From an uncultured Acidobacteriota bacterium (GTDB lineage Bacteria > Acidobacteriota > Vicinamibacteria > Vicinamibacterales > 2-12-FULL-66-21): a stretch of 64,000 nt of DNA. Shown here one piece after another: positions 3,726 to 47,335 of this stretch (position 1 is its first letter; each line of letters begins with the position of its first letter). The position numbers and the translations under genes are program-made. The stretch spans positions 425,478-489,477 of the forward strand of contig CAVXUR010000004.1 of assembly GCA_963764925.1 (NCBI GenBank), given 5' to 3'. A model generated the notes under the pieces. The model saw only the letters and a program-made list of their open reading frames with translations, did no database searches and was not told where the DNA came from.

Positions 3726-3747
3726 CGGCGGTGACCACCGCCGATCT

Positions 3748-3764: not shown

Positions 3765-3838
3765 CCAGACGTCACGAACAGAAACGTGCGCGGCGATAGG
3801 CTCGCGCTGGGGGTTTAAGTCATGGACCCCGGCAGTAG

Positions 3839-4573: not shown

Positions 4574-4583
4574 CGAGTCGCAG

Positions 4584-13739: not shown

Positions 13740-15781
13740 CGCCGGCGGCGCCGCGGCGGCGGCGCGTAGCTGCCGCGCGTCGCGCGCAGCATCTTCAGGA
13801 ACACGTCGCTGTTCTCGTAGACGCCGGTGAACTGCCACGCGCCGGGCCCTGAGGCCGACAGCGGCACGTCCGACGCCGTGTGGCCGGAGATGGTGTGGCC
13901 AAGCGACGCCGTGTCGCCGGGACATCCCGCCGGCGGACGGACACGGCGTCTCGCCGTTCTCGATCGTGCCCCGCACGAGAAACCCGGGAATCGGCCACGC
14001 CGCGCGTCGTCTTGTTGTCGCTCGCTCGCCGCGGCCGTCCCGCGCCGGGTTGGCCACGCTCACCGCCGGCTTCCCCTCCGCCGACCGCCGCCTCCAGCTG
14101 CAGCCGGTTCGAGATCCAGTTCTCGTAGTGATCGGGACCCGCCGCCCACCCGAGCAGGATCTTCCGCGACGGATCCGGATCGACGGGATAGCCCCGCTCG
14201 TCCACCTGGTAGTTGGGAAAGAAGTTCAGCTCCTGCTCCGGCACGAACCGGAACACGGCCGCGTAGTCGCGCACGGCCTTGCCGAGCGCGTCCGGCGCGT
14301 AGCGCTCGTTGCCGACGCCGATGATGCCCGAGGCCGCCGGTTTCGTGGTCGGCGGTCACGATGACCAGCGTGTCGTTGGCCGGATCGCGATCGCTGTTGG
14401 TGCGCCGCGCGAAGTCGAGCGCGACCTGCACGGCGCGATCGAACTCGATCACGTCCCAGATCGTGCGCTCGGCGTCGACGCGCGTGCGCGCGCTTGTCGA
14501 TCGACGCGCCCTCGACCATCAGGTAGAACCCGCGCGGCGAATGCGCCGAGAGGCTGCGCAAGCGCCAGCCGCGCCAGGTCTTCGAGCATCGGCGTGTCGC
14601 GGTAGGCGGCGTTCGCCGGCCGCGCCAGCTCGTCGCTGTAGCGGCCGGCGCCGACCTTGTCGAAGGCGACGGGCAGGTGCGTCGCGTGGAACAGGCCGAG
14701 AATCCTCGCCGGCGGCGTCGGCGCCGCCGACAGCCGCGCGACGTCGGTCGCGTTGGCAACCCTCGCGTATCCCGCCCGCTCGAACTCGTCGCGCAGCCGA
14801 CGGCCGTCGGTTCGCTCGCCCCCGGCGCCCTTCGGCATGAAGTATCGCGCGCCGCCGCCGAGCAGGACGCTGACGCCGTTGGCCTCGCGCTCGTCGAAGA
14901 ACCGAGCGGCGATGCCCGGCTCCCGCGTACCGATCCGACGTGTGCACGGCGTTGGCCGCCGGCGTCGAGTCGGTCACGTCGGCGGTCGTCACGATGCCGA
15001 CGTTGAAGCCGCGGCCGCGCGTGCGCGTCAGCAGCTCGCCGATGTACTCGATGCGCGGATTGTCGAACGCATCGGCGCGTGTTGTCGGGAAAGACGCCCT
15101 CCTGGTTGTTGTTGTTCTTCTGCCCGGTCGAGTACGCGGCCATCCCGGGCGACGAATCGGTGATCGCCGAGTTGAGCGACGCGGTCATCACCATGCCGGT
15201 GACGTCGAGCGTGTCCATCGCCAGGCGGCCGTTGGCCTTGCCGTTGTGCAGTCCGCGCGAGACGAGCCGCGCCGCCGTCCGGTGCGCGATGCCCATGCCG
15301 TCGCCGAGCAGCAGGATGACGTTCCGCGCCGACGCGGCCGTGCCGCCGGGCCTGCCAGCGCTCGACGGTCAGCCGCACCGTCGCGCGCGCGCCGTCGGCC
15401 GTGCGCGCCTCGATCACGAGCGGGCCCGGCACCGCTGACGCTGAAGTCGCGCAGCAGGAAGTTCGTCGTGTTCGGCGGCGCCGCGCCGGCCCGGTGCGCC
15501 GGCGGACACCGCTGCCGTCGGTGCCCGGTGCCGCCGGCGCCGCGCTCGCCGCCGGCACCGGCCGCGAGGATGTTGCGGCCGCGTGACGTCGCTGCCGTTG
15601 ACGAGCACCGTCAGACCTCGCGGCGGCTCGGTCCCGTCCGCCGTCGCCTCGACCCGGACGTCGACCCGCTGACCGGCCGCGAGCACGCCGCCGTCGGGCG
15701 GCATGATGCGAATCCGCGTCGCCGCCTGACGCCGGCACGACGCCCAGGCAGACGCACACGCACAGCCAGCGTGAATCTCAT
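13740..15781 (-). CDS. PhoA-family alkaline phosphatase with an N-terminal extra domain (many frame changes; 3' end uncertain)
   Basis: The ATG at 15781 gives the MRFTLAV... signal. Pieces on the minus strand: ARNVILLLGDGMGIAHRTAARL, ITDSSPGMAAYSTGQK (Ser nucleophile motif), GIVTTADVTDSTPAANAVHTSDR, GFYLMVEGASIDKRAH, LVIVTADHETGG, GHTASDVPLSASGPGAWQFTGVYENSDVF. The stop codon is not cleanly identifiable, and the last ORF piece runs on to 13652. Confidence 0.8.
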
Positions 15782-16335: not shown

Positions 16336-16609
16336 CCCGCGACCTCCTCATGTCGAAACAGAGTTCGCACGGACTCTGGGCGAGACCGCGCGCGAGGTCG
16401 CCTGCTGGGGAGGGCGACGAGGCTGGATGGCGAAAGAACCGGCGGCCGCCCGGTGGGCGGCGAGGGCGTCCGGCGCCTGCAGCGTGAGACTATCCGCTCA
16501 CGGTCAGGCGCCCCCTCAGGACCGACCACCGGCCGACCGCCGTTGGTATCAGATTCCCACAGCCATGTGACGTTTCGACAACGCCGGGGTTTCTGTCTTG
16601 CAAGATAAG

Positions 16610-17875
<1,266 letters not shown>

Positions 17876-18066: not shown

Positions 18067-18212
18067 TCCGCTACGAATTGCCGGCGATTGGCGCGCTGAA
18101 CTTTGTGCTGCATGGCCGGGTCGGCGGTGGCGTCACCCAGACGCTCGCGCTCGACGCGCATGGCAAGTCGTTGAGCTCGGCGCTCCTCGAGATGGAGATT
18201 CCGACTCCATAA
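18063..18212 (+). pseudogene. Remnant: C-terminal ~48 codons resembling an AtuA/DUF4387-type protein
   Basis: The tail of ORF 17853..18212 reads [48 protein letters not shown]-stop. I remember it as similar to AtuA-like C-termini. Confidence is low. Confidence 0.3.
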
Positions 18213-19177
18213 ACCTTCGCGGCCACGTCAGGGAAATCCGTGAATACGCCGTCCACGGCAAGGCTTCGTAGCTGCTCGAACTCTGCTTCGGGTTTGCCGG
18301 CATAGCCAGCCGGTAAAAACTCCTTGTCTATCCGCACCGTCCAGACGTGAACAAGAAGACCCGCGGCGTGCGCGCGGGCCACCAGGTCCGTTGGCGTTCC
18401 GAGCGACCCGTCACGGTCGACTGGGACGACTAGCCGTTTCTCAGGACCGAGGCCGTCGGCGTACTCGGCGATGTTCTTCAAGCCGTTCCCGTCGACCATC
18501 GCCGCGGTGCTGACCAGCTGAACAAGCCGGACGTCCGTCTTCTTTCGCAGATCACGCAGGTTGCCCTGCTCGAACGATTGGATGAATACCGGCGCTTCAC
18601 GACTATTCCAGCCGCGCGTGCGCAGCGATTCGACGAGGGGCTCCTCGAGCGGCAGCTGGATACTTCGAAAGTACGCCGGATGTTTCGTCTCAGGATAGAC
18701 GCCGACGGGCCGCCCGCGGGCTGCGCGCCCTCTCCTGCGCGAGCGCCAGCACTTCGTCAAACGTCGGGATCTGAAACTGACCGTCGTAGGCGTGAGAGCG
18801 GAAAGGCAGCCGCTCGCGCGCGCGAAGCGTCTTGATTTCCGCGAGCGTCAAATCCTCGCTGAACCAACCGCTCACCGACTGGCCGTCGATCACCCTGGTG
18901 CGCTTGCGATCGGGAAATCGCTCGGCCACGTCGGTCGTACCGCTGAGCTCGTTCTCGTGGCGTGCGATCAGGACGCCGTCCTTCGTCGAAACCAGATCCG
19001 GCTCGATGAAATCCGCACCCATCTCGACCGCGAGTTGTACGCCTCGAGCGTGTGCTCGGGTCGATGGCCGCTCGCGCCTCGGTGAGCGATGATGATCGGC
19101 CGCGGTGGAACGATGGCCGTCAGGGGCGGCCCGATCGCCCCGACAGTCAGGAGCACGACGCTGACAGAACGGATCAC
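18071..19177 (-). CDS. glpQ: Periplasmic glycerophosphodiester phosphodiesterase (at least 2 frame changes; non-native C-terminal tail)
   Basis: GDPD pieces: [85 protein letters not shown]. The GTG start at 19177 overlaps the receptor stop (GTGA). The last 45 or so codons read through the antisense of the gene remnant at 18063..18212. Confidence 0.85.
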
Positions 19178-22100
19178 CACAGCAGCTTCAGCCCCAATTG
19201 CAGTTGGCGCGGATCGTAGGTCGCGGTGATCGTACCGAAGCCGGCGGCGCTCCGATTGCCGTTCGGCGCGCGGAAGTTGGTCCGGTTCAGCAGGTTGAAT
19301 GCCTCGAACCTGAACTCGAACTGTGTCGTGCCAACCAGGTCGAACCGCTTGGCCAGCGACATGTCGAACTGCCAGAACATCGGGCCGCGAACCGAATTGC
19401 GCTCCGCATTCCCGAATGGCTGGCTCGGATCCGTCGGGAGAGCCACACAGGCCCGGTTGAACCAGTTGGCAATCGTGCGATCGGCGCCCGACGCCATCGG
19501 GTCGCAGGTGACATTCGGACGATAGTTGTTCGCGCCGCGGAAGTCCTGGACGATGCCGGAGACGACAAACGTCGCGCCGGGCGTGTAGGTGAACGTGACA
19601 GGCTCGCCAGCAAACATCGAGTTGATCCCGGCGAGCTGCCAGCCGCCGATGAACGCCTCCATCAGCGGTGAGGCGTTCGAACCCCAGCGCCGCCCCACTC
19701 CGAATGGCAGCGACCACACGAAGCTCGTCGTGCTGTTGTACGGCTGATGGTAGTTCGACAGCCCGAAGTCCGCGTCCATGTTGCGGAAGTCCTGCGGCGC
19801 CGGAAAGTTACCGTTCGAGTTCTCGAGCGACTGCGCGCCATTGTCCTCCGTTCGCGACAACGTCAGCGAGCTCAGGAAGCTGAGGGAGTTGTGGAAGCGC
19901 CACTCGAACTTGGCCTGAAGCGCCTGGTAGCGGGACTTTCCGCCGTTGAACGCGTACGTGATGTCCGAATAGGTCGGATTCGGGCGGCGGTCCTGCAGCT
20001 GAATCGTGCCGGCCGCGTTATTTGGAAACGCCTGGTTGTAGTTGGCAAACAGCAGCAGATCGTCGGCCTTGTTACCGACGTAGGCGACGTCGATCACCAT
20101 GTTGTGCACAATCTCGTGCTGGGCGGAGATGTACCAACTCTGCACCGGGCTCGAATGGAAATCCGACGGCATGTAAGTGATGTTTGCCGTCAGCGGGTTG
20201 AACGTCGACGGATCGGCCAGGCCAACCGGGTAACCCTGCTCCGCCGGCACGAACGATGGTGCCGTCGGCACGGTCTGGTTTACGACAGCGTTGACGACCT
20301 GAGGACCGTTGATCGGCAGGATGTCCCCGCCGCCGGCGCGGCTGAAGTGCACGTAGCTGACGCCGTAGCCGCCCCTGATGACGGTGCCTGGCGTCACGGT
20401 GTAGGCAAAGCCGAGGCGTGGTCCGAAATTGTTCCTGTCGGGGTTGATGAGCGCGCGATCGTAGGTCGACCCGTCTCTCGCGATGATCATCGAATTGGTG
20501 GCAGGATCGAAATTGGACAGGATGTTGTTCTTCTCCCAGTACGGTGTCGAGTATTCGTAGCGCACGCCGAGGTTGAGCGTCAGGTCGCTCGAGACCCGCC
20601 AATCGTCCTGCAGATAGGCGAAGTGCATGTTGCGGCGAAGGTCGGCGACGAGCACGCTGCTGAGCGCATACTGCGCGCGCAGGCCGAGCATGAAGTCGGC
20701 AAGGTTGTAGAGGTTGCTCGACGCCGCGCCGGCGGGCCGGCTGAACTGACCGTTGTAGGTATCCCGGCCGTACAGCGGATTGACGTCCTGCACCTGCGTA
20801 TCGATCTTCTGGAACTCGTAGCCGCTCTTGAACGAATGCGCGTTCATCGTCCAGGTGTAGTTCACCTTCGGGTTGTAGACGGTCGGGTACTGCCATTGTG
20901 GGTTGGTCGCCTGGCGGCCCAGATCGGAGTACCCCGTGATCAACTGCGTCGGCAGCCCGCCGGCGATCCGATCGTCGGTCGGCAGGCCGGGCAGCCCGAA
21001 CTGGTCGAGCGCGCTGTCGGTGCCGAGCGCCGGTGGATCCTTGCCGGCCTCGGTCCATGAATAGCCGAACCGCACCTCGAGCACTGAATTGGGGTTGGGC
21101 ACCCAGGTGCTGCCGAGCACGAACTGCCGATTGTTCGCGTAGATGTGACCGTTGCCGGCGCCGCCCGACGGCAGTGGAATGTTCGGCTGATCGTCGGTAG
21201 TCAGATCGCGGAATCCGTAGCGTCCGAACATCGAGAGATTCGGGTTCACCTGGACGTCCACCTTGCCGCCGGCCTTGTTCGAGTTGGCGGTGAACGCCTG
21301 CAGCGTACTGTAGTTGTTCGTCGCGCTCGGAAGGTTCGCGTCGGGCAGCCCCGAGAGGACTTCGCGCGCGAAGTTCGTCATCGGCACGGCCGTCCCGGCC
21401 GGGTAGACGACGCCGCTGCGCGGATCGCGAATGTCGACCGAGAGGACACCCTGCCGCTGCGCCGGCGTGGCGATCGTCGAAAAGCCTGTCACCTTGCGCG
21501 TCTGCCGCAGGCCCTCGTAGTCGCCGAAAAAGAACGCCTTGTTCCTGACGATCGGGCCGCCAACGACGCCGCCGAACTGATTCCGGTCGAGCTCCGGCTT
21601 GCCGGTCGTCGGCTTGAAAAAGCCCGTCGCGTTCATGCTCGTGTTGCGGTTGAACTCCCAGAGACTGCCGTGCACGGCGTTGGTGCCGCTGCGATAGTTG
21701 ACGTTGATCGTCGCGCCGGCGGCCCGGCCGTACTCGGCGCTCATGTTGTTGGTGACGACCTTGAATTCGCCAATCGCATCCGGCGACGGCTGCATCACCT
21801 GGTTCGAGAAACCCTGGTTGCTGGTGCCGTAGGCGTTGTTGTCGACGCCGTCAATCAGGAAGTTGTTGAAGGGGCTGCGCAGCCCGTTGACGTTCAGCGC
21901 GCCTTCGCGCGGCGTGTTGCCGGTCGTCAGCGATGACCCGGCGATCTTCACGCCGGTCGTCAGCAGGGCCAGCGAGGAGTACTCGCGCGAAATGAGCGGC
22001 AGGGCTCGCGTCTGCTCGCCGGTGATCACCTGCCCGCGCTGGCTCGAGTCGGTCTCGATGAGTGGCGACGACGCGGTCACCTCGACTCTCTCCGAGACCT

Positions 22101-22428
22101 GTCCGACAGGCATTTGCAGGTCCACGCGGAGCCGGGCGCCAACCTGCACGAGCACGTTCTCGACAAGCGCGATCGCGAACCCGCTCTTCTCGGCGGTCAC
22201 GACATAGAGACCTGGCTTGACCGCCGGAAACTCGAAGCTCCCAGTGTCGCTCGACGTCCTGACGACGGAGATGCCGGTCTCGACACCGGTCAGCGTTACC
22301 TTCGCTCCTTCCACGATACCGAGCGACGCGTCGCGAACCGTACCGACAACGGTTGCCGAGTCGAACTGCGCCCGCGCCGGCGCGGCGGACAGGATCACGA
22401 GCAGCGTACAGGCAAGACTGAATCGCAT
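19174..22428 (-). CDS. TonB-dependent receptor with N-terminal carboxypeptidase-regulatory-like domain
   Basis: Within ORF 19174..22794, the Met at 22428 is preceded by GGAGGTG (22435..22441). The signal peptide is [21 protein letters not shown], followed by [56 protein letters not shown] and then plug and barrel domains ending [10 protein letters not shown]. The frame is intact over 3.25 kb. Confidence 0.9.
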
Positions 22429-22555
22429 TTGATACACCTCCACCCCCGCGAACACGCTAGCGGCACCATGCAACGGCTGTAACAAGCACGTGAAACAACC
22501 ACGCGACGCCGACATCACGCCTCTCCGTGCGACCATGGATGTAAGGAGGTACCCA

Positions 22556-23041
22556 ATGCCCGTCCGTCGGCAGCTGAACGTCGAACAGGAGATTGTCGAA
22601 GCCTTCGAACAAAGCGGCCAGATCACTGAGTACCTCGTGACGGTGCTGCCACGACGGCTCTGGCAGCAACCGTCGCCGACCGGCCACGGGCGGACAATAG
22701 CAGCGATGGTCGCGCACATCCACGGCGTCCGCAAGACATTTGCGAAGATGGGTGGCGCCGCGGTTCCGCCGTCGCTGGACCGCATGCGCGTCACTCAGAC
22801 GCAGGCCCGACGCGCCCTCAGCCAGACGAATGCGGCGCTGACGACGCTATTCCGCGACTCTCTCGGCCGCGGCGAGGCGCGTCTGAGAGGCCTGCCCCGT
22901 CGATCGATCAACATGATGGCCTACCTGATTCAGCACGACGCCCACCATCGCGGCCAGATCATGCTCCGCGCACGCGAGCTCGGCCATACGTTCACCGGGG
23001 CCGACGTGATGCGGATCTGGGGCTGGAAACGCCTCCCCTAG
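22556..23041 (+). CDS. DinB-family (DinB_2) metalloenzyme-like protein
   Basis: The Met at 22556 is preceded by AAGGAGG. Motifs include IAAMVAHIHGVRKTF and YLIQHDAHHRGQIMLRAREL, which form the DinB His triad. Confidence 0.85.
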   Translation: MPVRRQLNVEQEIVEAFEQSGQITEYLVTVLPRRLWQQPSPTGHGRTIAAMVAHIHGVRKTFAKMGGAAVPPSLDRMRVTQTQARRALSQTNAALTTLFRDSLGRGEARLRGLPRRSINMMAYLIQHDAHHRGQIMLRARELGHTFTGADVMRIWGWKRLP

Positions 23042-24267: not shown

Positions 24268-26341
24268 GTGATCGCGACCGCTACGTCCCTCGACTCCCCT
24301 TCGCTTTACCTCAACCGCGAGCTCAGCTGGCTGGCCTTCAACGAGCGCGTCCTCGACCAGGCGCGGGATCGACGCCATCCCCTGCTCGAACGCGTCAAGT
24401 TCCTCGCCATCGTCGGGACCAACCTCGACGAGTTCTTCATGATTCGCGTTGCGGTCTTGCAGAAACAGATGCGGACCCAGCGCGAGCACGTCTCGCCCGA
24501 CGGCCTGACGACCGAGCAGCAGCTGTCGCTGGTTCGCGCGCGGGCGCGGCAGATGCTCGATCAGCAGGCCAGATGCTGGACCGATGCGCTTCGCCCCGAG
24601 CTCGCGGCCCACGGCATCAAGTTCCTCGAGCCGACTGAGTACTCGGAGGAGCTGTCGGCGTTCCTGGCCGGCTATTTTCAACGCGAGATCGCGCCGGTGC
24701 TGACACCGCTCGCGTTCGACCCCGGCCACCCCTTCCCGCACATCTCCAACCGGAGCAAGAACCTCGCGGTGGCGGTCAAGCATGAGGGGCGGACCAAGTT
24801 CGCGCGCATCAAGCTGCCACCGGTGCTGCCACGCTTTCTCCAGCTGCCGGCGAAGTTCACCGGCGGCGGCGTGGCGTTCGTGTTCATTGAGGACGTCGTG
24901 TGCGCCAACGTCGAAGCGCTCTTTCCCCGGCACGAGCATCAAGAGCGCGCACGTGTTCCGGGTGATTCGCGACACCGACATGGTGATCGAGGAGGACGAG
25001 GCCGACGATCTCCTGGAAACCATCGATCAGGGGTTGCGGCAACTCCGGCATGGAGCGCCGTCCCTGCTGCAGGTCGAAGAGCGGATGCCGCGTCGCGTGC
25101 TCGACATCCTCGTCGAGAATTTCGAAATCGACGATGACGTGCTCGTTCGCACGTCGCACCGGCTGGGATTCGGCGATTGGATGGAGCTCGTCGCGCTACA
25201 CCGGCCGGAGCTCAAGGATGCGGGATTCGCGCCGCGGATCGTCTGGGGACGCAATGACGTCGACGAGGTTTTCGAGCTCGTCCGGCACCGCGACTACATG
25301 CTGCATCACCCGTTCGATTCGTTCCTGTCGGTCGAAACGTTTCTGAGGGCCGCGGTCCGCGACCCCCACGTCGTGACGATCAAGCTGACGCTCTATCGCA
25401 TCGGCCACGATTCGCCGCTCATCGACCTGCTCGAGGAGGCGGCCGAGGCCGGCAAGCAGGTCGCGGTGCTCGTCGAGCTCAAGGCGCGCTTCGACGAGCG
25501 CAACAACATCACCTGGGCGACCCGGCTCGAAGCGGCGGGCGTGCACGTCGTCTACGGCCTCGTCAACCTGAAGACGCACTGCAAGTTGTGCCTGGTGATC
25601 CGGAAGGAACCGGATGGCATCCGGCGCTACGCGCACATCGGCACCGGCAACTACAACGCGTCGACGTCACGCGTCTACACGGATCTGGGCCTCGTCACGG
25701 CCCGGCCGACGATCGTCGACGACGTCACTAACGTCTTCAACTACCTGACCGGCTACTCCGGGATGACGGACTATCAGGAACTCCTGGTCGCACCGGTGAG
25801 CCTCCGGCGGCGCCTGACGGAGTTGATTGAGCGCGAGCGCGCGCATGCGTCGGAAGGCCGGCCGGCGAGGATCGTGATCAAGGTGAACAGCATCACCGAT
25901 CCCGGAATCATCCAGGAGCTCTACCGCGCCTCGCAGGCTGGCGTCCGCGTCGATCTGATCGTCCGCGGCATCTGCTGCCTGCGCCCGGGGATCGCGGGCG
26001 TGAGTGAGCGGATCACCGTGCGCTCGATCGTCGGCCGGTTCCTCGAGCACTCGCGCATCTACTCGTTCGAGAACGGCGGTGAGCCGCAGGCGTTCATCGG
26101 CAGCGCCGATCTGATGGAACGCAACCTGGATCGCCGTGTCGAGGTGCTCTGCCCGGTGATCGATGCCAGCTTGCTCGAGTACGTGCGGGACACGGTGCTT
26201 GGATCGTACCTGCGAGACACCGACCGCGCCGCCGTGCTCGGGCCGGATGGCGAATACAGGACGGCGGCTGCGGCCGACAACGTCGACCGGTTCAGCGCGC
26301 AGGATTTCCTGCTTACGCGGCACACGACCGACTACGCCTGA
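24268..26341 (+). CDS. ppk: Polyphosphate kinase 1 (one frame change at the C-run 24925..24928)
   Basis: YLNRELSWLAFNERVLDQARDRRHPLLERVKFLAIVGTNLDEFFMIRV runs to ...EALFP. The shifted frame then reads GTSIKSAHVFRVIRDTDM and continues through TIKLTLYRIG...VLVELKARFDE..N and HCKLCLV...Y.HIGTGNYN to GSADLMERNLDRRVE. This is a full-length PPK1 architecture. Confidence 0.95.
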
Positions 26342-26344
26342 GAA

Positions 26345-26530
26345 GTGGCAGCGGTGAGAGCCGTGCGAGCGAGCGCCGCGAGCGAGCCACGCGACCGGCC
26401 CACCTTCGCGCGGAAGGCGCTTCGGCGAGGTCCGCCGTAGCCTTGGCGGAGGCGGAAGCGCGCCGGCGAAGCGGCGCGCGAGAGAGCGTGTTGGGGAGTC
26501 CGAGGGGCAAAGCCCCTCGGGAAAGACTAG
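26345..26530. repeat. Hairpin-rich REP/MITE-like element, copy 2 (long form, inverted orientation)
   Basis: Its reverse complement reads ctagtctttcccgaggggctttgcccctcggactcccc..cacgctctctcgcgcgccgcttcgccggcgcgc, then a roughly 65-nt extra module, then gtcgcgtggctcgctcgcggcgctcgctcgcac. The terminal CTAG contains the sixA stop codon (26527..26529). Confidence 0.7.
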
Positions 26531-27027
26531 ACGAGTTTCCGCAGCATCTTGGGCGTGACGAACCAGCAAAGCTGGCCCTTGCCCTTCGGCGGGAAAACGG
26601 AGAAATCGATCCGGCAGATTGCGCCCTTTTTGAATGGCAGGGGCACTTTGGCGCCGATGAGGAAGGCGGCGAGCTCGCCCATGTTCGGCTCGTGGCCGAC
26701 AAGCGCGATGCGTGCCTTGCGCATGTGCTTGCCGAGCTCCTGAATCACCCCCGCGGGAGATCCCGCCGGCGTTAGCGCATCGGTGTTGGCGATCGGGGGC
26801 TTCGACTTCATCTCCTCCGCAAAGACGTCCGCCGTCTGTCGCGCGCGGACGAGCGGGCTCGACAGAATCTGATCGAAACCAATGTCGAGCGCGCTCAGGG
26901 CCTTGGCCTCCTTGCGCAGTCGGGCGATGCCATCGCTCGTCAGCGGGCGCTTGGAGTCATCGGGGTAATCTTCGCCGCGCTCGGCGGCCACGCCGTGTCG
27001 AATCAGATACAGCTCCAACGTCGCCAT
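26527..27027 (-). CDS. sixA: Phosphohistidine phosphatase SixA
   Basis: LYLIRHGVAAERG (RHG motif), SSPLVRARQTA and VGHEPNMGELAAFL. It is 166 aa with an intact frame. Confidence 0.9.
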   Translation of the reverse strand: MATLELYLIRHGVAAERGEDYPDDSKRPLTSDGIARLRKEAKALSALDIGFDQILSSPLVRARQTADVFAEEMKSKPPIANTDALTPAGSPAGVIQELGKHMRKARIALVGHEPNMGELAAFLIGAKVPLPFKKGAICRIDFSVFPPKGKGQLCWFVTPKMLRKLV

Positions 27028-27035
27028 TCGTGACT

Positions 27036-28010
27036 CTACCTCTGACCTGCGGCGCGGTCGAGCGGCCGCGCTGGTGCGCGCCGTACGGCGGGCCGCGCCT
27101 TGAGCGTCATCTTGAGCGCGCGCGCCCGGTGCGCCAGCTGCGGCACCACGACGGTGCGAATCGCGTCAACCACCTCGTTCAACCTGGGAATCGCGGCCAC
27201 GTAGCGGGCATGCAGGTGCCGGCATTCGTCTTCAAGCGCGCGGCTGATGACGTCGAGGCCACCGTCGGGCAGCGATCGGTTCGACGGCTGCTCCGCCTGG
27301 ACGGCGGCGACGTGCGACTGGAGCACCTGGAGATCGTGAAGGCGACCGAGCGTGTCCTGCGCGCGTTTGACGGCCCGAACCGGCGCGGACGCCGATTTCA
27401 CTCCGGCATCGTAGGCGAGCTCCGCCGCGTAGCGGAGCTTCTTGGCCGCAATCCGCACCTGATGCAGCTGCTCCGGCGCATACATGTGTCCGGCCGCCGC
27501 CAGTGCCGTCGCCAACGCCTTGGCGCGCTTCACGAGCCGCGCCCCGAGCGCGTCGCGCCAGGCTTCTGCGCCCGGCTCGGCCAGCGCCTGCCCTATTGCC
27601 TCCAGCCGCCGATCGAGCTTTGACACGTTCACATGATCGAGACGCTTGAGCATCGCGGCCCGGTGCGCGTCGCGTTCGACCACGACACGGCCGCGGACCG
27701 CTTCGAGCGCCGGACGCGGCAGCGTTTCGTTGGCCACGAGCTCGTCGAGGAGCTCGATCGTGACATCGAGCTCGCGAACGGCCCCGAGCGCCGACGTCAG
27801 TCGCCGGATCTTGCCACGCGCCTTGCGGCCTTTCGTGCCCTTGATGCCCGTGGTCAGCACCGGCACCGCTTCCCGCAGGCGCCGCGATGCGACCCGTGCC
27901 TGGTGCACACCGTGGGTGTCGCCGTCAACCGCATGCGGGAGATGGCGTTTGAGCGCCGCAGCGCGGCGCGCGAGCAAGCGGCTCGCGACAGAGGAGATTC
28001 GGCGGTTCAT
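27036..28010 (-). CDS. CHAD-domain protein
   Basis: Within ORF 27036..28106, the Met at 28010 gives MNRRISSVASRLL... The protein has repeated conserved-His helices: GVHQARVASRRLREAVPVL, LHQVRIAAKKLRYAAELA and LGRLHDLQVLQ. It lies 8 nt upstream of sixA. Confidence 0.85.
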   Translation of the reverse strand: MNRRISSVASRLLARRAAALKRHLPHAVDGDTHGVHQARVASRRLREAVPVLTTGIKGTKGRKARGKIRRLTSALGAVRELDVTIELLDELVANETLPRPALEAVRGRVVVERDAHRAAMLKRLDHVNVSKLDRRLEAIGQALAEPGAEAWRDALGARLVKRAKALATALAAAGHMYAPEQLHQVRIAAKKLRYAAELAYDAGVKSASAPVRAVKRAQDTLGRLHDLQVLQSHVAAVQAEQPSNRSLPDGGLDVISRALEDECRHLHARYVAAIPRLNEVVDAIRTVVVPQLAHRARALKMTLKARPAVRRAPARPLDRAAGQR

Positions 28011-28084
28011 GGTAGGATGACGGCTCAGATTTGGGAGAAAACGGCCAACAAAAGCGCAAAACTCGGGCCGGTTCCGCCAGTATA

Positions 28085-28101
28085 TAACGGCCATGTAACG
28101 G
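28085..28101. promoter_or_regulatory. Phased TAACGG-N5-TAACGG (= CCGTTA[CT] on minus strand) in the CHAD/ppx divergent spacer
   Basis: taacgg occurs at 28085..28090 and 28096..28101 (11-bp phasing). The minus strand reads CCGTTACatggCCGTTAT, the same core as the ppk1 boxes. Confidence 0.4.
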
Positions 28102-28147
28102 AACAAGCCCCTCGTTGATCACAGGGACCTCAGCCTAGCTGCCCCGC

Positions 28148-29846
28148 ATGCGCATCGCCGCCATCGATATCGGCACCAACTCGATCCACATGATCGTGGT
28201 CCAGGTGCGGCCCGGATTTGTCGTTCGAGGTCATCGATCGAGAAAAGGACATGGTCCGGCTCGGCGCCGGCGGTCTCGATGGCCGCAGCCTGACGCCGAC
28301 CGCCATCAGCGCCGCGCTGCAAACGCTGTCGAAGTTCAAACGGATCGCGGAATCGCACAAGGTCGACGAGATTGTCGCCTGCGCGACCAGCGCCACCCGC
28401 GAGGCCGATAACGGCGGCGACTTCATTGCCGAAGTCGACCGCCAGATCGGCATCCGCATCCGCGTCATTTCCGGCACCGAGGAAGCGCGTCTCATCCATC
28501 TCGCCGCAGGCTACGGCGTCGACATCGGTGCGACCACCGCCGTCGTCGTCGACATCGGCGGCGGCAGCGTCGAGATCACGCTCGGATCGGCGACACATCT
28601 GACGCTCGGCCGCAGCTTCAAGGTCGGTGTGATCCGACTCACCGAACGGTTCGTCAAGAGCGACCCGCTCAGCGGCGGCGACGAGCGCCGCCTGATCAAG
28701 CACCTCAACCGCGAAATGGGCAGCTATATCGACCAGATCGCCGGCAAGGGCTTCGATCGCGTGATCGGCACATCGGGTACGATCCTGAGCCTTGGCCTGA
28801 TGGCGGCGACCGACGACGGCGAGTCGCCCGAGGACGTACGCAACCTCAAGGTCAGCGCGAAGGCTCTCCATCGTCTTCGCAAGCACCTGGTCGAGTCGGA
28901 CATCAAGGAACGGCTCGCGACGCCCGGAATGGATCCCCGCCGCGCCGATCTGTCGGTCGCCGGATCGGTGCTCTTCGATACGATCATCCGCCGGCTCGGC
29001 ACCGACGCGTTCACGCTCTGCGACCTCGCCCTGCGCGAGGGCATCGTGCTCGACTACATCCGCCGCAACAGCGCCCGCATTCGCAAGGTCGAGCGCTACC
29101 CCGACGTCAGGCGTCGCAGCATCGTCGAGCTCGGCGAACGCTGCGGGTACTGGTCCGAGCATGCCCAGCAGGTGGCGAGGCTCGCACTGAACATCTTCGA
29201 TCAGACGCGGAGCGTCCACGGACTGTCGGACCGTGAGCGTGAATGGCTCGAGTACGGCGCGCTCCTGCACGACGTCGGCGTGCACATCAGCTACGAACGT
29301 CACCACCGGCATTCGTACTATCTGATCAAGAACGGCGATTTGCGCGGCTTCGATCCGCAGGAAATTGAAGTCATCGCCCTCATCGCGCGCTACCACCGCC
29401 AGGCGACGCCGAAAAAATCGCATGACGGCTACGGCGACTTGAAGGGGTCGGTGAGGAAGACCGTCAAGGTTCTCTCGGCAATGGTGCGGCTCGCCGAAGG
29501 CCTCGACCGCAGCCACGCCCAGGCGCTCGCCGGCATCGACTTGTACCCGCGCGGCGACGACTACCTGGCCCGCCTCCGCGCCACCGGCGACGCGGAGCTC
29601 GAGCTGTGGGCCGCGCACCGTCACGTCTCCCCCCTCGAAGGGATCCTCGGTAAACCGATCCGCTTCGAGGTCGCCAGCAACGACTACAAAGGACAGGTGG
29701 CCGACACGACCAGCCACTCTTCGGACAACGCTCATGCTCAACAACCTGACGACGCGCCACGAGTACCCGGGAAAGCTGTTCGTGGTCGAAGGCATCGACG
29801 GGTCCGGAAAGACAACGCAGCTGGCGCTGCTGGCGAAGTGGCTTAG
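28148..29846 (+). CDS. ppx: Exopolyphosphatase Ppx/GppA with HD domain (one frame change near 28211..28216)
   Basis: MRIAAIDIGTNSIHMIVVQVRP is followed, after the shift, by SFEVIDREKDMVRLGAGG. Later motifs are VVDIGGGSVEI, IGTSGT and the HD region LLHDVGVHISYERHHRHSYYLIKN. The last 35 or so codons overlap the next gene, so the true stop may be earlier. Confidence 0.9.
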
Positions 29847-30432
29847 CAACGCCGGGCACCCGGTGTTCGTCACCGAGTGGAACTCGTCCGCGCTCGTCAA
29901 GGCCGCGACCAAGTCGGGGAAGAAAAAGAACTCGCTGACGCCGATGACGTTCAGCCTGCTGCATGCCACCGACTTCGCCGACCGGCTGCTCTACAACATC
30001 ATCCCGCCGCTCAAGGCCGGGATGATCGTTCTGGCCGATCGCTACGCCTACACGGCGTTTTCGCGCGACGCCGCGCGCGGGGTCGATCGCCGCTGGGTGC
30101 GGGAGCTCTACAGCTTTGCCGTCAGGCCTGACCTGGCAGTGTACTTTCGGGTGCCGATTGAGGTGTCAGCCGATCGGCTCCTGGCGCGCCGGGTCAAGCT
30201 GAAGTTCTACGAGGCGGGCATGGACATGGGCTGGAGCAACAACGCCATCGAGAGCTTCAAGATGTTCCAGGGCAAGGTGCTCGAGGAATATGATCGGATC
30301 GTCGATGAGTTCGAGCTGAGCGTCATCGCTGCAAGCGGGAGCATCACGGAGCAGCAGCGAACCTTCCGCAAAATCGTCTCTCAACATCTCGCGATAGAGG
30401 ACACGAATGACGAGCTCGATGAGCTTGCCTGA
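29734..30432 (+). CDS. Thymidylate-kinase-like P-loop kinase, paralog 1
   Basis: KLFVVEGIDGSGKTTQLALLAKWL is a canonical Walker A. Other motifs are LLHATDFADRL and IVLADRYAYTAFSRDAARGVD (DRY). There is an unusual C-terminal FYEAGMDMGW segment. The frame is intact. Confidence 0.8.
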   Translation: MLNNLTTRHEYPGKLFVVEGIDGSGKTTQLALLAKWLSNAGHPVFVTEWNSSALVKAATKSGKKKNSLTPMTFSLLHATDFADRLLYNIIPPLKAGMIVLADRYAYTAFSRDAARGVDRRWVRELYSFAVRPDLAVYFRVPIEVSADRLLARRVKLKFYEAGMDMGWSNNAIESFKMFQGKVLEEYDRIVDEFELSVIAASGSITEQQRTFRKIVSQHLAIEDTNDELDELA

Positions 30433-31186
30433 GGCCGGCGCCAACGGCGGCGCCAAACCCGGCAGCTATTACGGCAACGCGATCCCGTATCTGCCGATCG
30501 AAGGCTATCCGGGGAAAATCATCGCGATCGAGGGGACCGACGGCGTCGGCCGATCCACTCAGATCACGCTCCTTCGCGAATGGCTCGAAGTGCAGGGGTA
30601 TGGCGTCATCGAAACCGGGTGGACGCGCTCGGAGCTGATGCAGCCGACCATCGAGCTCGCCAAGTCGAGCAACACGCTGAACAAACTGACCTTCGTCCTG
30701 CTCTACGCCACTGACTTCGCGGATCGGCTCGAGAAGGAAATCGTTCCGGCCCTCAAGGCCGGCTTCATCGTCCTGTCGGATCGCTACATCTACACGGCGA
30801 TGGCCCGCGCCGGCGTGCGCGGCGTCGATCGCACGTGGATCCGCAACCTGTACGGCTTTGCGATTGCGCCGCACCTCGTCTTCTACCTGAAAATTGACGA
30901 GAAGACGCTCATCCGCCGCGTCCTCAAGGCCCGCGGCATGGACTACTGGGAATCGGGCATGGACATGAAGCTCGGCGACGACATCTACGAGAGCTTCCGT
31001 GCCTATCAAAAGGCGCTCCTGAAGGAGTACGCCTCGATGTCCGACGAATTCGGCTTCCGGGTCCTCGATGCCCGGAGGAAAGTCGACGTCATCCAGGACG
31101 AGCTGCGACGCCAGATCGGTGCATTCCTGGCCGAAAACGATAGCAGCCGCGCAGAGGCGGCCGCTACCGCTCAAACCGCGCCATAG
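30407..31186 (+). CDS. Thymidylate-kinase-like P-loop kinase, paralog 2 (Walker-A Lys replaced by Arg)
   Basis: KIIAIEGTDGVGRSTQITLLREWL reads GxxGxGR-ST instead of GK-T. Other motifs are LLYATDFADRL, IVLSDRYIYTAMARAGVRGVD and YWESGMDMKLG. It overlaps paralog 1 by 26 nt. Confidence 0.75.
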   Translation: MTSSMSLPEAGANGGAKPGSYYGNAIPYLPIEGYPGKIIAIEGTDGVGRSTQITLLREWLEVQGYGVIETGWTRSELMQPTIELAKSSNTLNKLTFVLLYATDFADRLEKEIVPALKAGFIVLSDRYIYTAMARAGVRGVDRTWIRNLYGFAIAPHLVFYLKIDEKTLIRRVLKARGMDYWESGMDMKLGDDIYESFRAYQKALLKEYASMSDEFGFRVLDARRKVDVIQDELRRQIGAFLAENDSSRAEAAATAQTAP

Positions 31187-31196
31187 CGCAAGGCTG

Positions 31197-31214
31197 TTTA
31201 CACGAAATTTACAC
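31197..31214 (+). promoter_or_regulatory. Candidate Pho box TTTACAC-N4-TTTACAC upstream of pstB
   Basis: tttacac occurs at 31197..31203 and 31208..31214 (exact 11-bp phasing), 60-75 nt before the pstB start. Confidence 0.5.
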
Positions 31215-31274
31215 CGGTGAAATTGCGCGGAAACCGGGTCGGGATAGGCTGGTTTCGTTCGGACGTCCCCCAAC

Positions 31275-32117
31275 GTGACCCCCGGCATGACCTTGGCGCA
31301 GACAACTCCTCCACCCCTGACCGTCACCGTGAGGACGCCGTCCCAGCAGACGGTGGACCATCGTGTTTCGATCGACGTTCAGGCCCTGAACTTCTTTTAC
31401 GGGCCTAAACGAGCGCTGGAGGATATCAGCATCGCCATCCCGGCAAAGCTGGTCACCGCCTTCATCGGCCCATCGGGCTGCGGTAAGAGCACGTTTCTGA
31501 GAACGCTCAACCGGATGAACGACATCATCGCGGGGACGCGTGTCGAGGGACGCGTGCTCATCGACGGCGACGATGTCTACCGGCCCGGCACCGACGTCGT
31601 GGCGCTGCGTCGTCGGGTGGGGATGGTGTTTCAGAAGTCGAATCCGTTCCCGAAGTCCATCTTCGACAACGTGGCGTATGGCTTGCGGATCAATGGCCTG
31701 GCGGCCAATCGCTCCGACTTGCACGGGCGTGTTGAGGAGAGCCTGAGGCAGGCGGCGATCTGGGACGAGGTCAAGGATCGCCTTCACGACTCGGCTAACG
31801 CGCTCTCGGGCGGTCAGCAGCAGCGGCTGTGCATCGCGCGGGCGCTGGCCGTCAAACCCGACATCGTGCTGATGGACGAGCCGGCGTCGGCGCTCGACCC
31901 GATCGCCACCCAGCGTATCGAAGAGTTGATCTATCAGCTCAAAACGCAGTACACGATTGTGATCGTGACGCACAACATGCAGCAGGCGGCCCGCGTCTCG
32001 GACCGCACCGCGTTTTTCTGGCTGGGCCGCCTCATCGAGCACGGCCCGACCGACCGCATCTTTACCAACCCGGCCGAAAAGCTCACCGAAGACTACGTGA
32101 CCGGGAGATTTGGATAG
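31275..32117 (+). CDS. pstB: Phosphate ABC transporter ATP-binding protein PstB
   Basis: [79 protein letters not shown] and [17 protein letters not shown]. The start is GTG at 31275 or ATG at 31287. Confidence 0.95.
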
Positions 32118-32118
32118 A

Positions 32119-32218
32119 GCTCTCAGCTTTCAGCTGTCAGCTTTCAGCCAGAAGGAAAGGCTGACGGGCGACCGAGCAACACCTAGAGCTGAAAGCTGAT
32201 GGCTGATAGCTGAGAGCC
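32119..32218. repeat. Inverted pair of 4-unit heptamer arrays (GCTNTCA / GCTGANA)
   Basis: The left arm is gctctca gctttca gctgtca gctttca gcc (32119..32149). The right arm is gctgaaa gctgatg gctgata gctgaga gcc (32188..32218). The arms are complementary except at the variable unit positions. The element fills the pstB-phoU spacer. Confidence 0.75.
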
Positions 32219-32227
32219 TTTGAAATC

Positions 32228-32908
32228 ATGCCCGATCGCATCGTTCCGCACTTTCAGGAAGAGCTCGAGCAGCTCAAGACGCGCCTCCTCGAAATGGGGG
32301 GGCTCGCGGAGGACCGGGTGCGTTCCGCGGTCAAGGGTCTCGTCCAGCGTGACGCGCCGATTATCGACCGCGTGCTCGCCGGCGACGGCCCGATCAATCA
32401 GCTGCACATCGAGATCGACAGCCGGTGTTTCAAGCTGCTGGCCCTGCATCAACCGATGGCCGTCGACCTGCGGGCGATCGTCGCCGCCGTCAAGATCAAC
32501 ACCGACCTCGAGCGCGTCGGCGATTTGGCGATCAACATCGCCGAGGCAGTGCGGCGTTACATGCGGCACCCGCCCGTCAAGGAGCTCATCGACATCCCGC
32601 GCATGGCCGACATCGCCCAGCGGATGCTGCGCAACGCCCTCGATGCGTTCGTGCGCCGCGATCTCGACCTCGCCCAAAGCGTCCTCAACGAGGACGACAC
32701 GCTCGATGCGCTGAAGACGCAGGTCTTTCGCGAGCTCCTGACTTACATGCTCCAGGACACGCACACGATTGAGCCGTCGCTCGACTTGATCCTCATCTCC
32801 CGCCACCTCGAGCGGATCGGCGACCATGCCACCAACGTCGCCGAAGACGTCATCTTCATGGTGTCGGCCAGGGACGTGCGGCACCACGCAGGCGAAGTCG
32901 AGGCGTAG
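32228..32908 (+). CDS. phoU: Phosphate signalling complex protein PhoU
   Basis: Two PhoU repeats: [17 protein letters not shown] and [22 protein letters not shown]. It is 226 aa with an intact frame. Confidence 0.95.
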
Positions 32909-32910
32909 CA

Positions 32911-33001
32911 GGGCTCTCGGCTCTGGGCTCTGGGCTCAAGCAAAACCCTCGTTTGGGGGCTCCAAGCTCGTGCCAGAGCCCAGAGCCGAGAGCCCTGAGC
33001 C
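32911..33001. repeat. Inverted pair of heptamer arrays (GGCTCTN / NAGAGCC)
   Basis: The left arm is gggctct cggctct gggctct gggctca (from 32911, 3 nt after the phoU TAG). The right arm is cagagcc cagagcc gagagcc ctgagcc (to 33001). The arms are almost perfectly complementary. Confidence 0.75.
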
Positions 33002-33041
33002 TTTCTGCATTTCCCCCCGCCGATTGATACAATGGCCGCGT

Positions 33042-33230
33042 TTGGCGGAGTCCGAATCCCTCTGCGTGTACTGCCGTCGTCAGCGGATCGACCCGGCGTG
33101 GCGGCCCTTCTGCAGCGAACGGTGCCGGATGGCGGACTTGGGCCGCTGGCTCAACGAGGACTACCGGGTGCCGGACGAGCCCCTGATGGACCAACCAACA
33201 GATGACGAGCCCGAAGACGATCTCCAATAA
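33042..33230 (+). CDS. yacG: DNA gyrase inhibitor YacG (zinc finger)
   Basis: [36 protein letters not shown] is followed by an acidic tail. The start is assigned to TTG at 33042. A nearby out-of-frame ATG (33032) may be the true start if there is an indel. Confidence 0.7.
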
Positions 33231-33252
33231 CGCGACCGGACAGATATCCCGC

Positions 33253-34540
33253 ATGGCCGACACGCTGACCATTACCGACAACCGTACCGGCAAGCAGTAC
33301 CGAGATTCCTATTCAGGACGGCACGATTCGGGCCATGGACCTGCGTCAGATCAAGGTCGTCCCCGAAGAGTTCGGGATGATGACCTACGACCCGGCGCTC
33401 ATGAACACCGCCGCGTGCCGCAGCCGGATTACCTACATCGACGGCGACAAGGGAGTGCTCCTCTATCGAGGCTATCCGATCGAGCAGCTGGCCGAGCGCA
33501 GCGACTTTCTCGAGACCGCGTTTCTCATCCTGTTCGGCGAGCTGCCCACTGAAGCCGAGCACCGGCAGTGGACCCGCGACATCACGCAGCACACGATGCT
33601 GCACACCAACATCTCCAAGCTGATGGAGGGGTTCCAGTACGACGCGCACCCGATGGGGATGTTCATCAGCACGGTCGGTGCGCTGTCGACGTTCTACCCC
33701 GACGCCAAGAACATCTTTTCGAACGAGTCGCGGCGTCTGCAGACGATCCGGCTGATTGCCAAGGTCCCGACGATTGCCGCCTACGCCTACCGGCACTCGA
33801 TCGGCCGGCCCTACAACCTGCCCGACAACGATCTGACCTACGCCGGCAACTTCCTGAACATGTTGTTCAGGATGACCGAGACGAAATACCAGGTGAGCCC
33901 GGTGCTCGAGCGCGCGCTCGACGTCCTCTTCATCCTGCACGTCGATCACGAGCAGAATTGCAGCACCAGCACGATGCGAAACATCGGCAGCTCGCACGCC
34001 GACCCGTACTCCTCGCTCGCCGGCGCGGCGGCGGCTCTGTACGGCCCGCTGCACGGTGGCGCGAACGAGGCCGTCCTGCGGATGCTGACCGAGATCGGCT
34101 CGCTCAAGAACGTGCCGGCCTTCATCAAGCGGATCAAGGGCGGAGATGGCCGATTGATGGGTTTCGGACACCGCGTGTACAAGTCCTACGACCCGCGGGC
34201 GGCCATCATCAAGCGGATCGCCGATCTCGTGTTCGAGGTGACGGGCAAGAACCCGTTGCTCGAGATCGCGCTGGAACTCGAGCGCATCGCGCTCGAAGAC
34301 GAATACTTCGTGACCCGGAAGCTCTATCCGAACGTGGACTTCTACTCGGGGTTGATTTACCAGGCGATGGGCTTTCCCGTCGACATGTTCCCGGTGCTCT
34401 TCGCCATCCCGCGCACGGCAGGCTGGGTCGCACAGTGGGAGGAAATGCTCCTCGACCCGGACCAGAAGATCGCCCGGCCGCGTCAGATTTACATCGGGTC
34501 GGCCAAGCGGGACTACGTCCCGCGCGAAAAGCGGCGCTGA
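33253..34540 (+). CDS. gltA: Citrate synthase (one frame change near 33300)
   Basis: MADTLTITDNRTGKQY is followed, after the shift, by MDLRQIKVVPEEFGMMTYDPALMNTAACRSRITYIDGDKGVLLYRGYPIEQL. Later motifs are LFILHVDHEQNCSTS, GPLHGGANE and GFGHRVYK. Confidence 0.95.
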
Positions 34541-44028: not shown

Positions 44029-45038
44029 CTAGGATTTAACCCGTTTCCGAATGTCCTGATTGACCCTGGCGAGCTCGATCATCAGGCGTTCGAACTCCTG
44101 TTGATACTCTGCCGGCTGGAGAAAGCTGCGGCGGACCTTGAGCTCATCGAGATCAGCCTCGAGCGCCGCGCGCTTCTGCAGCAGCTTCAGCAGCACCTCG
44201 TCAGTCGGACGCGCGCCGGGGAGTGGCTCATCGAGATAGACGTGGCTCGAGAGCGATCCATCCTCGCCGTTGCCGCCGGCGTCCCGGCCGACCCCGTCGC
44301 CATTGTCGTCGAGTAGCGCCCGCTCCGTGGAGAGCTGCCCGCGGCGCTGGTAGTGCCGCCGCACTTCGCCGGTCGCCGCGGTGAACGCCTCCCAGATGGA
44401 AATTCGATCGTTCTTGTCGATGTCGGACGCGTCGCTCCTCAGAGCTTTGATGAAGTAGTCGGGAAACACCGTGTCAAACCGTTGCGCCACCGAGTCGGTT
44501 GCGGTGATGACCACCCGGCGCTCGCCAGTCAGCCGCTCGATGAACGGAAAGCTTGCCGACGATGTGTTGACGACCACGACCCGGCCGGGCAGTCCCGCCA
44601 CGAGCTCTGCCCACTGCGCCGATTCCAGATCGGCTCCGACCAGATTGAACTTGGCGTCGACGCCATCGTAGGTGCCGTGGCCGATGAGGACGATGAACAG
44701 GAGGTCGTCGCGCGTCATCGCGCGCCGGATGGTGCTGAGATGTTGGCGGACGTTAGCGGCGGTGGACGCGGTCGACGGGTCGGGCGTATCGGTCAGCACT
44801 TTCAGGTGCGCGCGATCGATCTTCATCCGCTCGACGAGCACGGCCGCGAGATCCCGGGTCCAGCGCGGCGTACTGCGTGGCGTACTCCTGCGCCGCCGCT
44901 CGCGCCCGACGACGATGAGCGCGTAGCGCTCGCCGGCCGCAGGCTGCGTCGCGCGGCAGCGTGACGGAGCACGGCCGCTGCGCGGCTGCGCAGACGCCAG
45001 CCGACCTTCCGCTGAAGCCGGAAGCCACGGTTGGTCAT
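44029..45038 (-). CDS. Legumain/C13-like protein with C-terminal coiled coil (frame broken near the 5' end; start approximate)
   Basis: ERYALIVVG..., LFIVLIGHGTYDGVDAKFNLVGADL, VVVVNTSSASFPFIERL, RVVITATDSVAQRF and ISIWEAFTAATGEVRRHY are followed by LLDDNGDGVG and the coiled coil LLKLLQKRAALEADLDELK. The His-Gly motif is present, but the position where I expect the catalytic Cys reads Ser. Confidence 0.5.
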
Positions 45039-45045
45039 ATCTTGT

Positions 45046-45072
45046 CTTGAACCTGAACCCTGAACCCTGAAC
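45046..45072. repeat. Single-arm CTGAACC-type array (GGTTCAG family, locus 3)
   Basis: cttgaac ctgaac cctgaac cctgaac lies in the 40-nt gap between the VWA gene stop (45078) and the legumain-like start. Confidence 0.7.
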
Positions 45073-45077
45073 GCCTC

Positions 45078-47329: not shown

Positions 47330-47335
47330 GCCGGC

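Follow-up and report, generated by a model that had tools for sequence, protein, structure and literature searches.

The window analysed here is a stretch of 64,000 nucleotides (nt) from an uncultured bacterium of the Vicinamibacterales (Acidobacteriota; contig CAVXUR010000004.1, positions 425,478 to 489,477). It contains two overlapping genes for thymidylate kinase (Tmk)-like paralogs, situated between ppx and pstB. With a probability of roughly 0.8, these two genes encode the catalytic (c) and regulatory (r) subunits of a family-3 polyphosphate kinase (PPK3) of a Vicinamibacterales soil bacterium, which works as the archaeal enzyme does. PPK3 is already a known enzyme family, and the pair in the window is a bacterial representative of it rather than a new system. 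The evidence consists of the orthology of the two proteins, the state of their motifs, the synteny of their genes, transcription across the gene junctions in related populations, and co-occurrence with polyphosphate kinase 1 (PPK1).

PPK3 was described in Sulfolobus acidocaldarius as a heteromeric polyphosphate kinase derived from dTMP kinase (dTMPK), made up of Saci_2019 and Saci_2020 (Höfmann et al., JBC 2026; bioRxiv 2024; PMC12995831). Saci_2019 is the catalytic subunit, cPPK3. Saci_2020 is rPPK3, which is inactive alone and boosts the activity about 10-fold; the complex (SaPPK3) is an alpha2beta2 tetramer (PMC12995831). The reaction is reversible, and the direction in which polyphosphate (polyP) and ADP give ATP is about 50-fold more active (PMC12995831). 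PPK3 evolved from dTMPK, and its kinship with PPK2 is remote.

The original prediction, made from the DNA letters and their translations, had proposed a polyP- or Pho-linked heteromer of nucleotide kinases, with translationally coupled genes and a second subunit that a Lys-to-Arg change might have turned into a pseudo-kinase or regulatory subunit. This is essentially what has been shown for Saci_2019/Saci_2020, to which the window pair is orthologous by sequence, tree, motifs and synteny. Its remark that no characterisation of such a pair was known is out of date, PPK3 having been published in 2024 (bioRxiv) and 2026 (JBC). The analogy it drew with PPK2 holds as a parallel but not as ancestry, since the family stems from dTMPK. 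The name PPK3 clashes with another usage: in biocatalysis papers it also denotes a PPK2-type enzyme.

Probable assignment of the gene pair to PPK3

The two genes are as originally predicted: a pair of overlapping Tmk-like paralogs of 232 and 259 amino acids (aa), here called c (paralog 1) and r (paralog 2), with the coordinates, the overlaps with each other and with ppx, and all the quoted motifs present, including GSGKTT in paralog 1 and GVGRST in paralog 2. In the list of open reading frames (ORFs), c and r share 26 nt out of frame (30407-30432), and a GAGGA Shine-Dalgarno-like element lies inside c, 5 nt 5' of the r ATG. The ppx ORF shares 113 nt with the 5' end of c (29734-29846). The start assigned to c is backed by homologs with an N-terminus of equal length, for example that of locus L088 (MHHFLEPHKYPGKLFIVEG). 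A ppx-c overlap of 113-248 nt is typical of Vicinamibacterales loci (L001-L080), and one of 4 nt is usual in other phyla. A functional tail of the exopolyphosphatase (PPX), a by-product of high guanine-plus-cytosine (GC) content, or a hint of a frameshifted PPX-c fusion are all conceivable explanations for the ppx sequence that lies over c. A scan of positions 26300-33400 found neither a sigma-70-like promoter nor a terminator in the gap between r and pstB, a result that is uninformative for an acidobacterium.

The two proteins are clearly paralogous. BLASTP aligns them with 42% identity across 215 aa (E 9e-62), and both match the Pfam family PF02223 (Thymidylate_kin), with E values of 1.7e-22 and 6.2e-23. 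Motifs in c have direct counterparts in r: LLHATDFADRL and LLYATDFADRL, DRYAYTA and DRYIYTA, and YEAGMDM and WESGMDM, respectively. Neither paralog matches the PPK2 family PF03976 in Pfam at E ≤ 0.01.

In the PDB, the top match of both is STK_15430 of Sulfurisphaera tokodaii (entries 2plr, 4nzy, 4rzx and 5h70), over the full length and with E values of 8.4e-53 for c and 1e-45 for r. The alignment with c covers its residues 13-217 at about 50% identity. STK_15430 was deposited as a "probable thymidylate kinase" and is a cPPK3 homolog (PMC12995831). Canonical Tmks in the PDB match at 2e-14 or weaker, about 38 orders of magnitude behind STK_15430.

The active-site residues, numbered here as in the window proteins, differ between the two subunits. 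Subunit c retains the Walker-A lysine (K26), D102-R103-Y104 of the Asp-Arg-X (DRX) motif, the basic lid residues R148, R153, K155 and K157, and the pair K63-K64. Each is conserved in 74-100% of the orthologs, and archaeal c subunits conserve them as well. About 99% of first-gene products have the Walker-A lysine. At the position of this lysine r has R49. An arginine is found here in 100% of 148 bacterial r subunits and in 86% of 7 archaeal ones. The change is therefore ancient and fixed throughout the r lineage, and did not arise by mutation in the window alone. In the lid of r, R171 is kept and the other basic residues are replaced by a gap, G177 and D179, while the position of K64 is occupied by S87. 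These losses agree with the published description of a basic cleft that c conserves and r does not (PMC12995831).

The name given to such proteins in public annotations raises the question of whether one or both might be true thymidylate kinases, duplicated beside phosphate genes by chance. Homologs are indeed named 'dTMP kinase' (by JGI and NCBI in the case of P0005-P0120), PF02223 is matched, and the dTMP-kinase equivalog model TIGR00041 scores 82.0 and 82.2 bits, although with a cut-off of 83.25 both proteins fall just under it. No third Tmk-like ORF was found in the 64-kb window, nor did the 3.2 Mb of loci that were fetched contain a canonical tmk. When the sequences are aligned, however, neither paralog looks like a dTMP kinase at the residues that recognise thymine. 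F74 and R78 of E. coli Tmk, which we take to stack on thymine and to contact the base, respectively, align with H77 and F81 in c and with Y100 and F104 in r. The linkage to ppx, SixA and CHAD is kept across about 10 phyla and archaea, and holB is absent from the vicinity. Evidence also comes from the archaeal orthologs. Neither Saci PPK3 subunit has dTMPK activity, which is present in a third, canonical paralog, and PPK3-bearing genomes carry extra dTMPK paralogs (PMC12995831). A thymidylate kinase identity is therefore very improbable.

The genomic context was compared in loci gathered for the Sulfolobales with the STK_15430 sequence, and for bacteria with paralog 2 and with a diverse alignment (80 + 80 loci). 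From these, 157 c-r pairs were extracted. The order is c followed by r in all 157, Sulfolobales included, and the two genes usually overlap or abut. The proposed link to polyP genes is borne out by these neighbourhoods. ppx adjoins the pair in nearly all of the 157 loci, spread over about 10 bacterial phyla and the Sulfolobales, and SixA and CHAD genes are frequent neighbours: sixA is beside the pair in most loci, and CHAD is kept in loci of Vicinamibacterales and of many further phyla. In most Vicinamibacterales pstB comes after the pair, and in some Nitrospirota it stands before ppx. The published archaeal operon has the order SixA-PPX-c-r-CHAD (saci_2017-2021; PMC12995831). The locus of Metallosphaera yellowstonensis (L084) has the same order, with GSGKSS and DRY in c and GSGRTL and DGY in r, and the window has the same type of neighbourhood, with ppx, SixA and CHAD all beside the pair.

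The conserved SixA and PstB-PhoU neighbourhood, together with an acceptor site unlike that of Tmk, might also suit a polyP- or ATP-dependent kinase for another acceptor, such as protein histidine, tied to SixA/PhoU signalling. We consider this highly unlikely: the orthologous enzyme needs only ADP or ATP and polyP, and genes for PPK1 and PPK2, too, typically have SixA and CHAD beside them (PMC12995831).

The first Sulfolobales gene finds window c as its best match (43-49% identity) and the second finds window r (30-36%); in the other direction, window c matches the first gene best and window r the second. A neighbour-joining tree with 100 bootstraps was rooted on E. coli Tmk as single outgroup. 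In this tree the c subunits, those of the window and the Sulfolobales included, are monophyletic in 100/100 bootstraps, so that paralog 1, whose placement against Tmk had been left to phylogeny in the original prediction, sits inside the cPPK3 clade and apart from E. coli Tmk. Window r lies inside the cluster of bacterial r.

The pair occurs in Acidobacteriota (Vicinamibacterales, Terriglobia and Polarisedimenticolia), Nitrospirota (including Nitrospira lenta), Myxococcota/"delta", Binatia, Planctomycetota, Bacteroidota/Ignavibacteriota/Chlorobi-like bacteria, Chloroflexota, Armatimonadota, Eisenbacteria, Thermodesulfobacteriota and Sulfolobales. An exhaustive HMMER search gave 314 clusters at 50% identity (E ≤ 1e-30), and a word-index search gave no fewer than 7,987 clusters at 90% identity (E ≤ 1e-5). 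PPK3 has been presented as chiefly archaeal, with an occurrence in "a few bacteria" (PMC12995831). These cluster counts, and the spread over about 10 bacterial phyla, show that this is too low. The label 'dTMP kinase' that thousands of these genes carry in soil Acidobacteriota, Nitrospirota, Binatia, Planctomycetota and further groups is probably wrong, and should be replaced by PPK3 c or r subunit. Among the bearers are Nitrospira and Vicinamibacterales, both of environmental importance, and PPK3 may therefore help to buffer phosphorus and energy in soils and among wastewater nitrifiers. The nearest public locus (L001, contig CAWCQI010000032.1) has 96.7% DNA identity to the window. Some metagenome-assembled genomes (MAGs) with Vicinamibacterales-like PPK3 or PPK1 loci (L063, L169, L172 and L231) are labelled Bifidobacterium or Bifidobacteriaceae, probably through taxonomic mislabelling of bins.

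There are also indications that c and r are expressed and function together. Among the homologs there are natural single-chain c-r fusions (P0124), as well as fusions of c, r and the Ppx/GppA domain III (P0141, P0174 and P0192). Metatranscriptome contigs from soil and rhizosphere, of about 95% identity, run across the c-r junction (X26, 30163-30664; X27, 30292-30532; X30, 30368-30518), and X26 also crosses the ppx/c boundary (29638-29796), although in both cases DNA carry-over is possible. As a separate observation, c-like Tmk domains are found within large multidomain proteins (P0201, P0210, P0221 and P0244). Among their architectures are a major facilitator superfamily (MFS) transporter with Tmk-like and APH/DUF2252 domains, and a 'polyvalent' protein of 2575 aa that also contains ART-PolyVal and inorganic pyrophosphatase domains.

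By analogy with the homologous archaeal enzyme, the reaction, the formation of a heteromer and the regulatory role of r can be outlined as follows. Subunit c would bind ATP or ADP at the P-loop and polyP in the basic cleft, and would move the terminal phosphate reversibly between them; under a falling energy charge it would mainly make ATP from ADP and polyP. Subunit r would be produced from the same mRNA by coupled translation, would assemble with c, as the archaeal subunits do in their alpha2beta2 tetramer, and would stabilise the active form and activate c. By itself r probably transfers phosphate hardly or not at all. A drop in the ATP/ADP ratio would then discharge polyP, mainly that made by PPK1, into ATP, and PPX, SixA, CHAD and PstB-PhoU may link PPK3 to polyP turnover and phosphate signalling.

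The bacterial r subunit

The part of this proposal that is least certain is the role of r, and several observations weigh against the reading given above. The inactivity of the archaeal rPPK3 has been ascribed to a missing DRX arginine (PMC12995831). Window r retains this arginine, in D125-R126-Y127. The DRX arginine is in fact present in about 100% of bacterial r subunits, DGY being found only in the r of the Sulfolobales, and the published explanation of r inactivity is therefore not general. Secondly, the conservation of bacterial r falls little short of that of c: the mean pairwise identity across phyla is 55% for r and 60% for c. For this reason the inactivity of r is not established. Thirdly, the r subunits were recovered as monophyletic in only 2/100 bootstraps of the neighbour-joining tree, with archaeal r on long branches beside the outgroup; it is these long archaeal branches, together with a single distant outgroup, that account for the failure to recover r monophyly. 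Fourthly, an AlphaFold2 monomer model of r, built with 25 close homologs, is unusable (predicted local distance difference test score, pLDDT, 38; predicted template modelling score, pTM, 0.24), and the fold assignment rests on the full-length sequence matches to the crystal structure of STK_15430. Finally, the sole characterised PPK3 comes from a thermoacidophilic archaeon, to which the window proteins have 45-50% (c) and 30-36% (r) identity.

The retained DRX arginine marks a bacterial variant of r, with the pair still in the PPK3 family. A second mark of this variant is an N-terminal extension of 20-30 aa that carries the motif (Y/F)(Y/F)GxGLPY (YGxGLPY for short), located in the window at 30467-30493 (residues 21-29). 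The motif is conserved in bacterial r and absent from c and from archaeal r.

On balance we think it rather likely that r is catalytically silent. A different possibility, which we regard as unlikely but by no means negligible, is that bacterial r is a working module for ligand binding rather than a pseudo-kinase in decay. With its arginine P-loop, DRX arginine and conserved pocket it would then bind a nucleotide or a phosphate chain. It would either sense the energy charge (adenylate or polyP status) and gate c accordingly, or offer a second site of catalysis, slower and with another substrate (for example AMP, GDP or chain priming). The P-loop EGTDGVGR[ST]T is near-invariant in r across 50%-identity clusters and phyla, and D125-R126-Y127, R134, R138, R171 and W181-E182-x-G184-x-D186 are likewise invariant or nearly so. 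The small difference in conservation between bacterial r and c may be compared with the situation in the Sulfolobales, where r is far more relaxed than c (57% vs 74% mean pairwise identity). The restriction of DGY to Sulfolobales r and of the YGxGLPY motif to bacterial r fits the same idea, as does the trace ADP formation reported for Saci_2020 (PMC12995831). However, the Walker-A lysine is replaced in every r, and the basic lid residues that are conserved in c and used catalytically by type II Tmks are gone. Neither PPK nor dTMPK activity was measurable for archaeal r (PMC12995831), and the high conservation could equally be explained by the constraints of a tetramer interface. If bacterial r were nevertheless such a module, its mechanism would be distinct from that of archaeal r, which is inactive without the DRX arginine, and PPK3 beside PPK1 would constitute a dedicated, regulated valve for the discharge of polyP into ATP, tied to PstB-PhoU signalling.

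The surrounding gene cluster and PPK1

The features of the PPK3 pair and its neighbours are listed in Table 1. PPK1, SixA, PstB and PhoU were identified using curated NCBIfam cut-offs, and PPX and the CHAD protein using Pfam. sixA and the CHAD gene are transcribed divergently from ppx, c, r, pstB and phoU, with ppk1 just upstream.

Table 1. Positions in the window of the PPK3 genes, their P-loops and junction, and the neighbouring genes.
Feature	Position	Strand	Description
cPPK3 (paralog 1, c)	29734-30432	+	232 aa; predicted catalytic subunit of a family-3 polyphosphate kinase
P-loop of cPPK3, EGIDGSGKTT	29788-29817	+	Lys26 codon AAG at 29809-29811
rPPK3 (paralog 2, r)	30407-31186	+	259 aa; predicted regulatory/oligomerisation subunit
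P-loop of rPPK3, EGTDGVGRST	30530-30559	+	Arg49 codon at 30551-30553
c/r junction	30398-30432	+	GAGGA Shine-Dalgarno-like element at 30398-30402; r start codon at 30407; overlap runs to the c stop
ppk1 (polyphosphate kinase 1)	24268-26341	+	Two frames, owing to a 1-base frameshift (TTTCCCC run, near 24922-24927); TIGR03705, 578 bits (cut-off 466)
sixA-like phosphohistidine phosphatase	26527-27027	-	His_Phos_1; TIGR00249, 85 bits (cut-off 74.5)
CHAD-domain protein (polyP-granule associated family)	27036-28106	-	PF05235, E 7.7e-36
ppx exopolyphosphatase (Ppx/GppA + domain III/HD)	28218-29846	+	PF02541, E 8.7e-54; PF21447, E 1.7e-30
pstB (phosphate ABC transporter ATPase)	31275-32117	+	TIGR00972, 401 bits (cut-off 343)
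phoU (phosphate signalling complex protein)	32228-32908	+	TIGR02135, 222 bits (cut-off 130); two PhoU domains

Most PPK3 genomes are reported to lack PPK1 and PPK2 (PMC12995831). In the window ppk1 belongs to the same cluster as the pair, 1.9 kb upstream of ppx. PPK1 and PPK3 also occur on the same contig or MAG in at least 6 Vicinamibacterales genomes (L214/L036, L215/L068, L228/L067, L229/L047, L226/L055 and L244/L002). This co-occurrence favours a division of labour over a simple replacement. Given that PPK1 is present, it probably builds polyP, and PPK3 would be the arm that turns polyP into ATP.

The ppk1 gene of the window is split between two frames, with the PP_kinase_N domain and the middle domain in ORF 24268-25137, and the middle, C1 and C2 domains in ORF 24782-26341. 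The frameshift is probably an assembly error, because it lies in a TTTCCCC run, it is absent from relatives and from short-read contigs, and other genes are split in the same way. Illumina contigs from soil lack one base at 24922 or 24927, and the relatives L032 and L002 have no indel there. The genes for pstA, a phoB-like response regulator, a DUF58 protein and a MoxR-type AAA protein are also frame-split (2876-3891, 3972-4604, 52744-53656 and 53661-54203). With this many indel errors in the assembly, the ORF lengths in the window need to be treated with care. We conclude that ppk1 is probably intact. The idea that it is a decaying pseudogene, replaced in situ by PPK3, was rejected as the default, given the position of the frameshift and its absence from relatives and short-read contigs. 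Separately, the close relative L001 lacks window positions 24651-26476 (about 1.8 kb, most of ppk1; L001 3920-4076), which looks like a real deletion.

The wider surroundings are also rich in phosphate genes. pstS, pstC and pstA (814-3891) lie about 27 kb away from pstB-phoU (31275-32908). Between the two blocks there are genes for a low-molecular-weight phosphatase (10216-10746), a type I phosphodiesterase (13235-13852) and a glycerophosphodiester phosphodiesterase (GDPD, 18071-18760), as well as glgC (16598-17875) and a gene for a TonB-dependent-like outer-membrane protein (19174-22794). The stretch 814-32908 as a whole looks like a Pho-type island. Further downstream, the region 45000-50800 has 70-73% GC and long overlapping ORFs on both strands, none of which passes a simple filter on GC at third codon positions.

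Comparison with known systems

The closest characterised system is SaPPK3 of S. acidocaldarius. Both systems have adjacent paralogs of the dTMPK fold, c and then r, beside ppx, SixA and CHAD. In both, c has the P-loop lysine, the DRX arginine and a basic lid, and the dTMP-binding residues are unconserved. The r subunits of the Sulfolobales and of the window are alike in the Lys-to-Arg change of the P-loop and in the loss of basic residues. They differ in the DRX motif, where the window protein keeps an arginine and archaeal r has a glycine, in the N-terminal YGxGLPY extension of 20-30 aa found in window r, and in the much higher conservation of the latter. Window c is about 45%, and window r 30-36%, identical to the Sulfolobales orthologs. 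The setting differs too: the window comes from a mesophile of soil, PPK1 is encoded in the same cluster, and pstB-phoU come after the pair.

STK_15430 has in common with paralog 1 the motifs TEWNSS, KKK..LTP, HATDF.DR, DRY.YTA.ARD and EAG.D. Unlike the window pair, it is a single archaeal subunit that was crystallised alone. Paralog 2 deviates in the lid, in the P-loop (K to R) and at the TEWNSS motif, where it reads TGWTRS.

Canonical Tmk, as represented by E. coli b1098, which is next to holB, resembles the window proteins in its fold, P-loop, DRX motif and lid architecture, at about 23% identity. The window proteins differ from it in scoring under the equivalog cut-off, in the replacement of F74 and R78, and in their genomic context.

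A functional parallel is provided by two-domain class II PPK2 enzymes such as PA3455 of Pseudomonas aeruginosa. In these an inactive P-loop kinase module teams up with an active one, which serves oligomerisation and activation, and the reaction favours polyP-driven nucleotide phosphorylation (PMC12995831). Such enzymes belong to PF03976, are single fused chains and act on AMP. Their ADP and polyP sites are reported to be swapped relative to those of PPK3 (PMC12995831).

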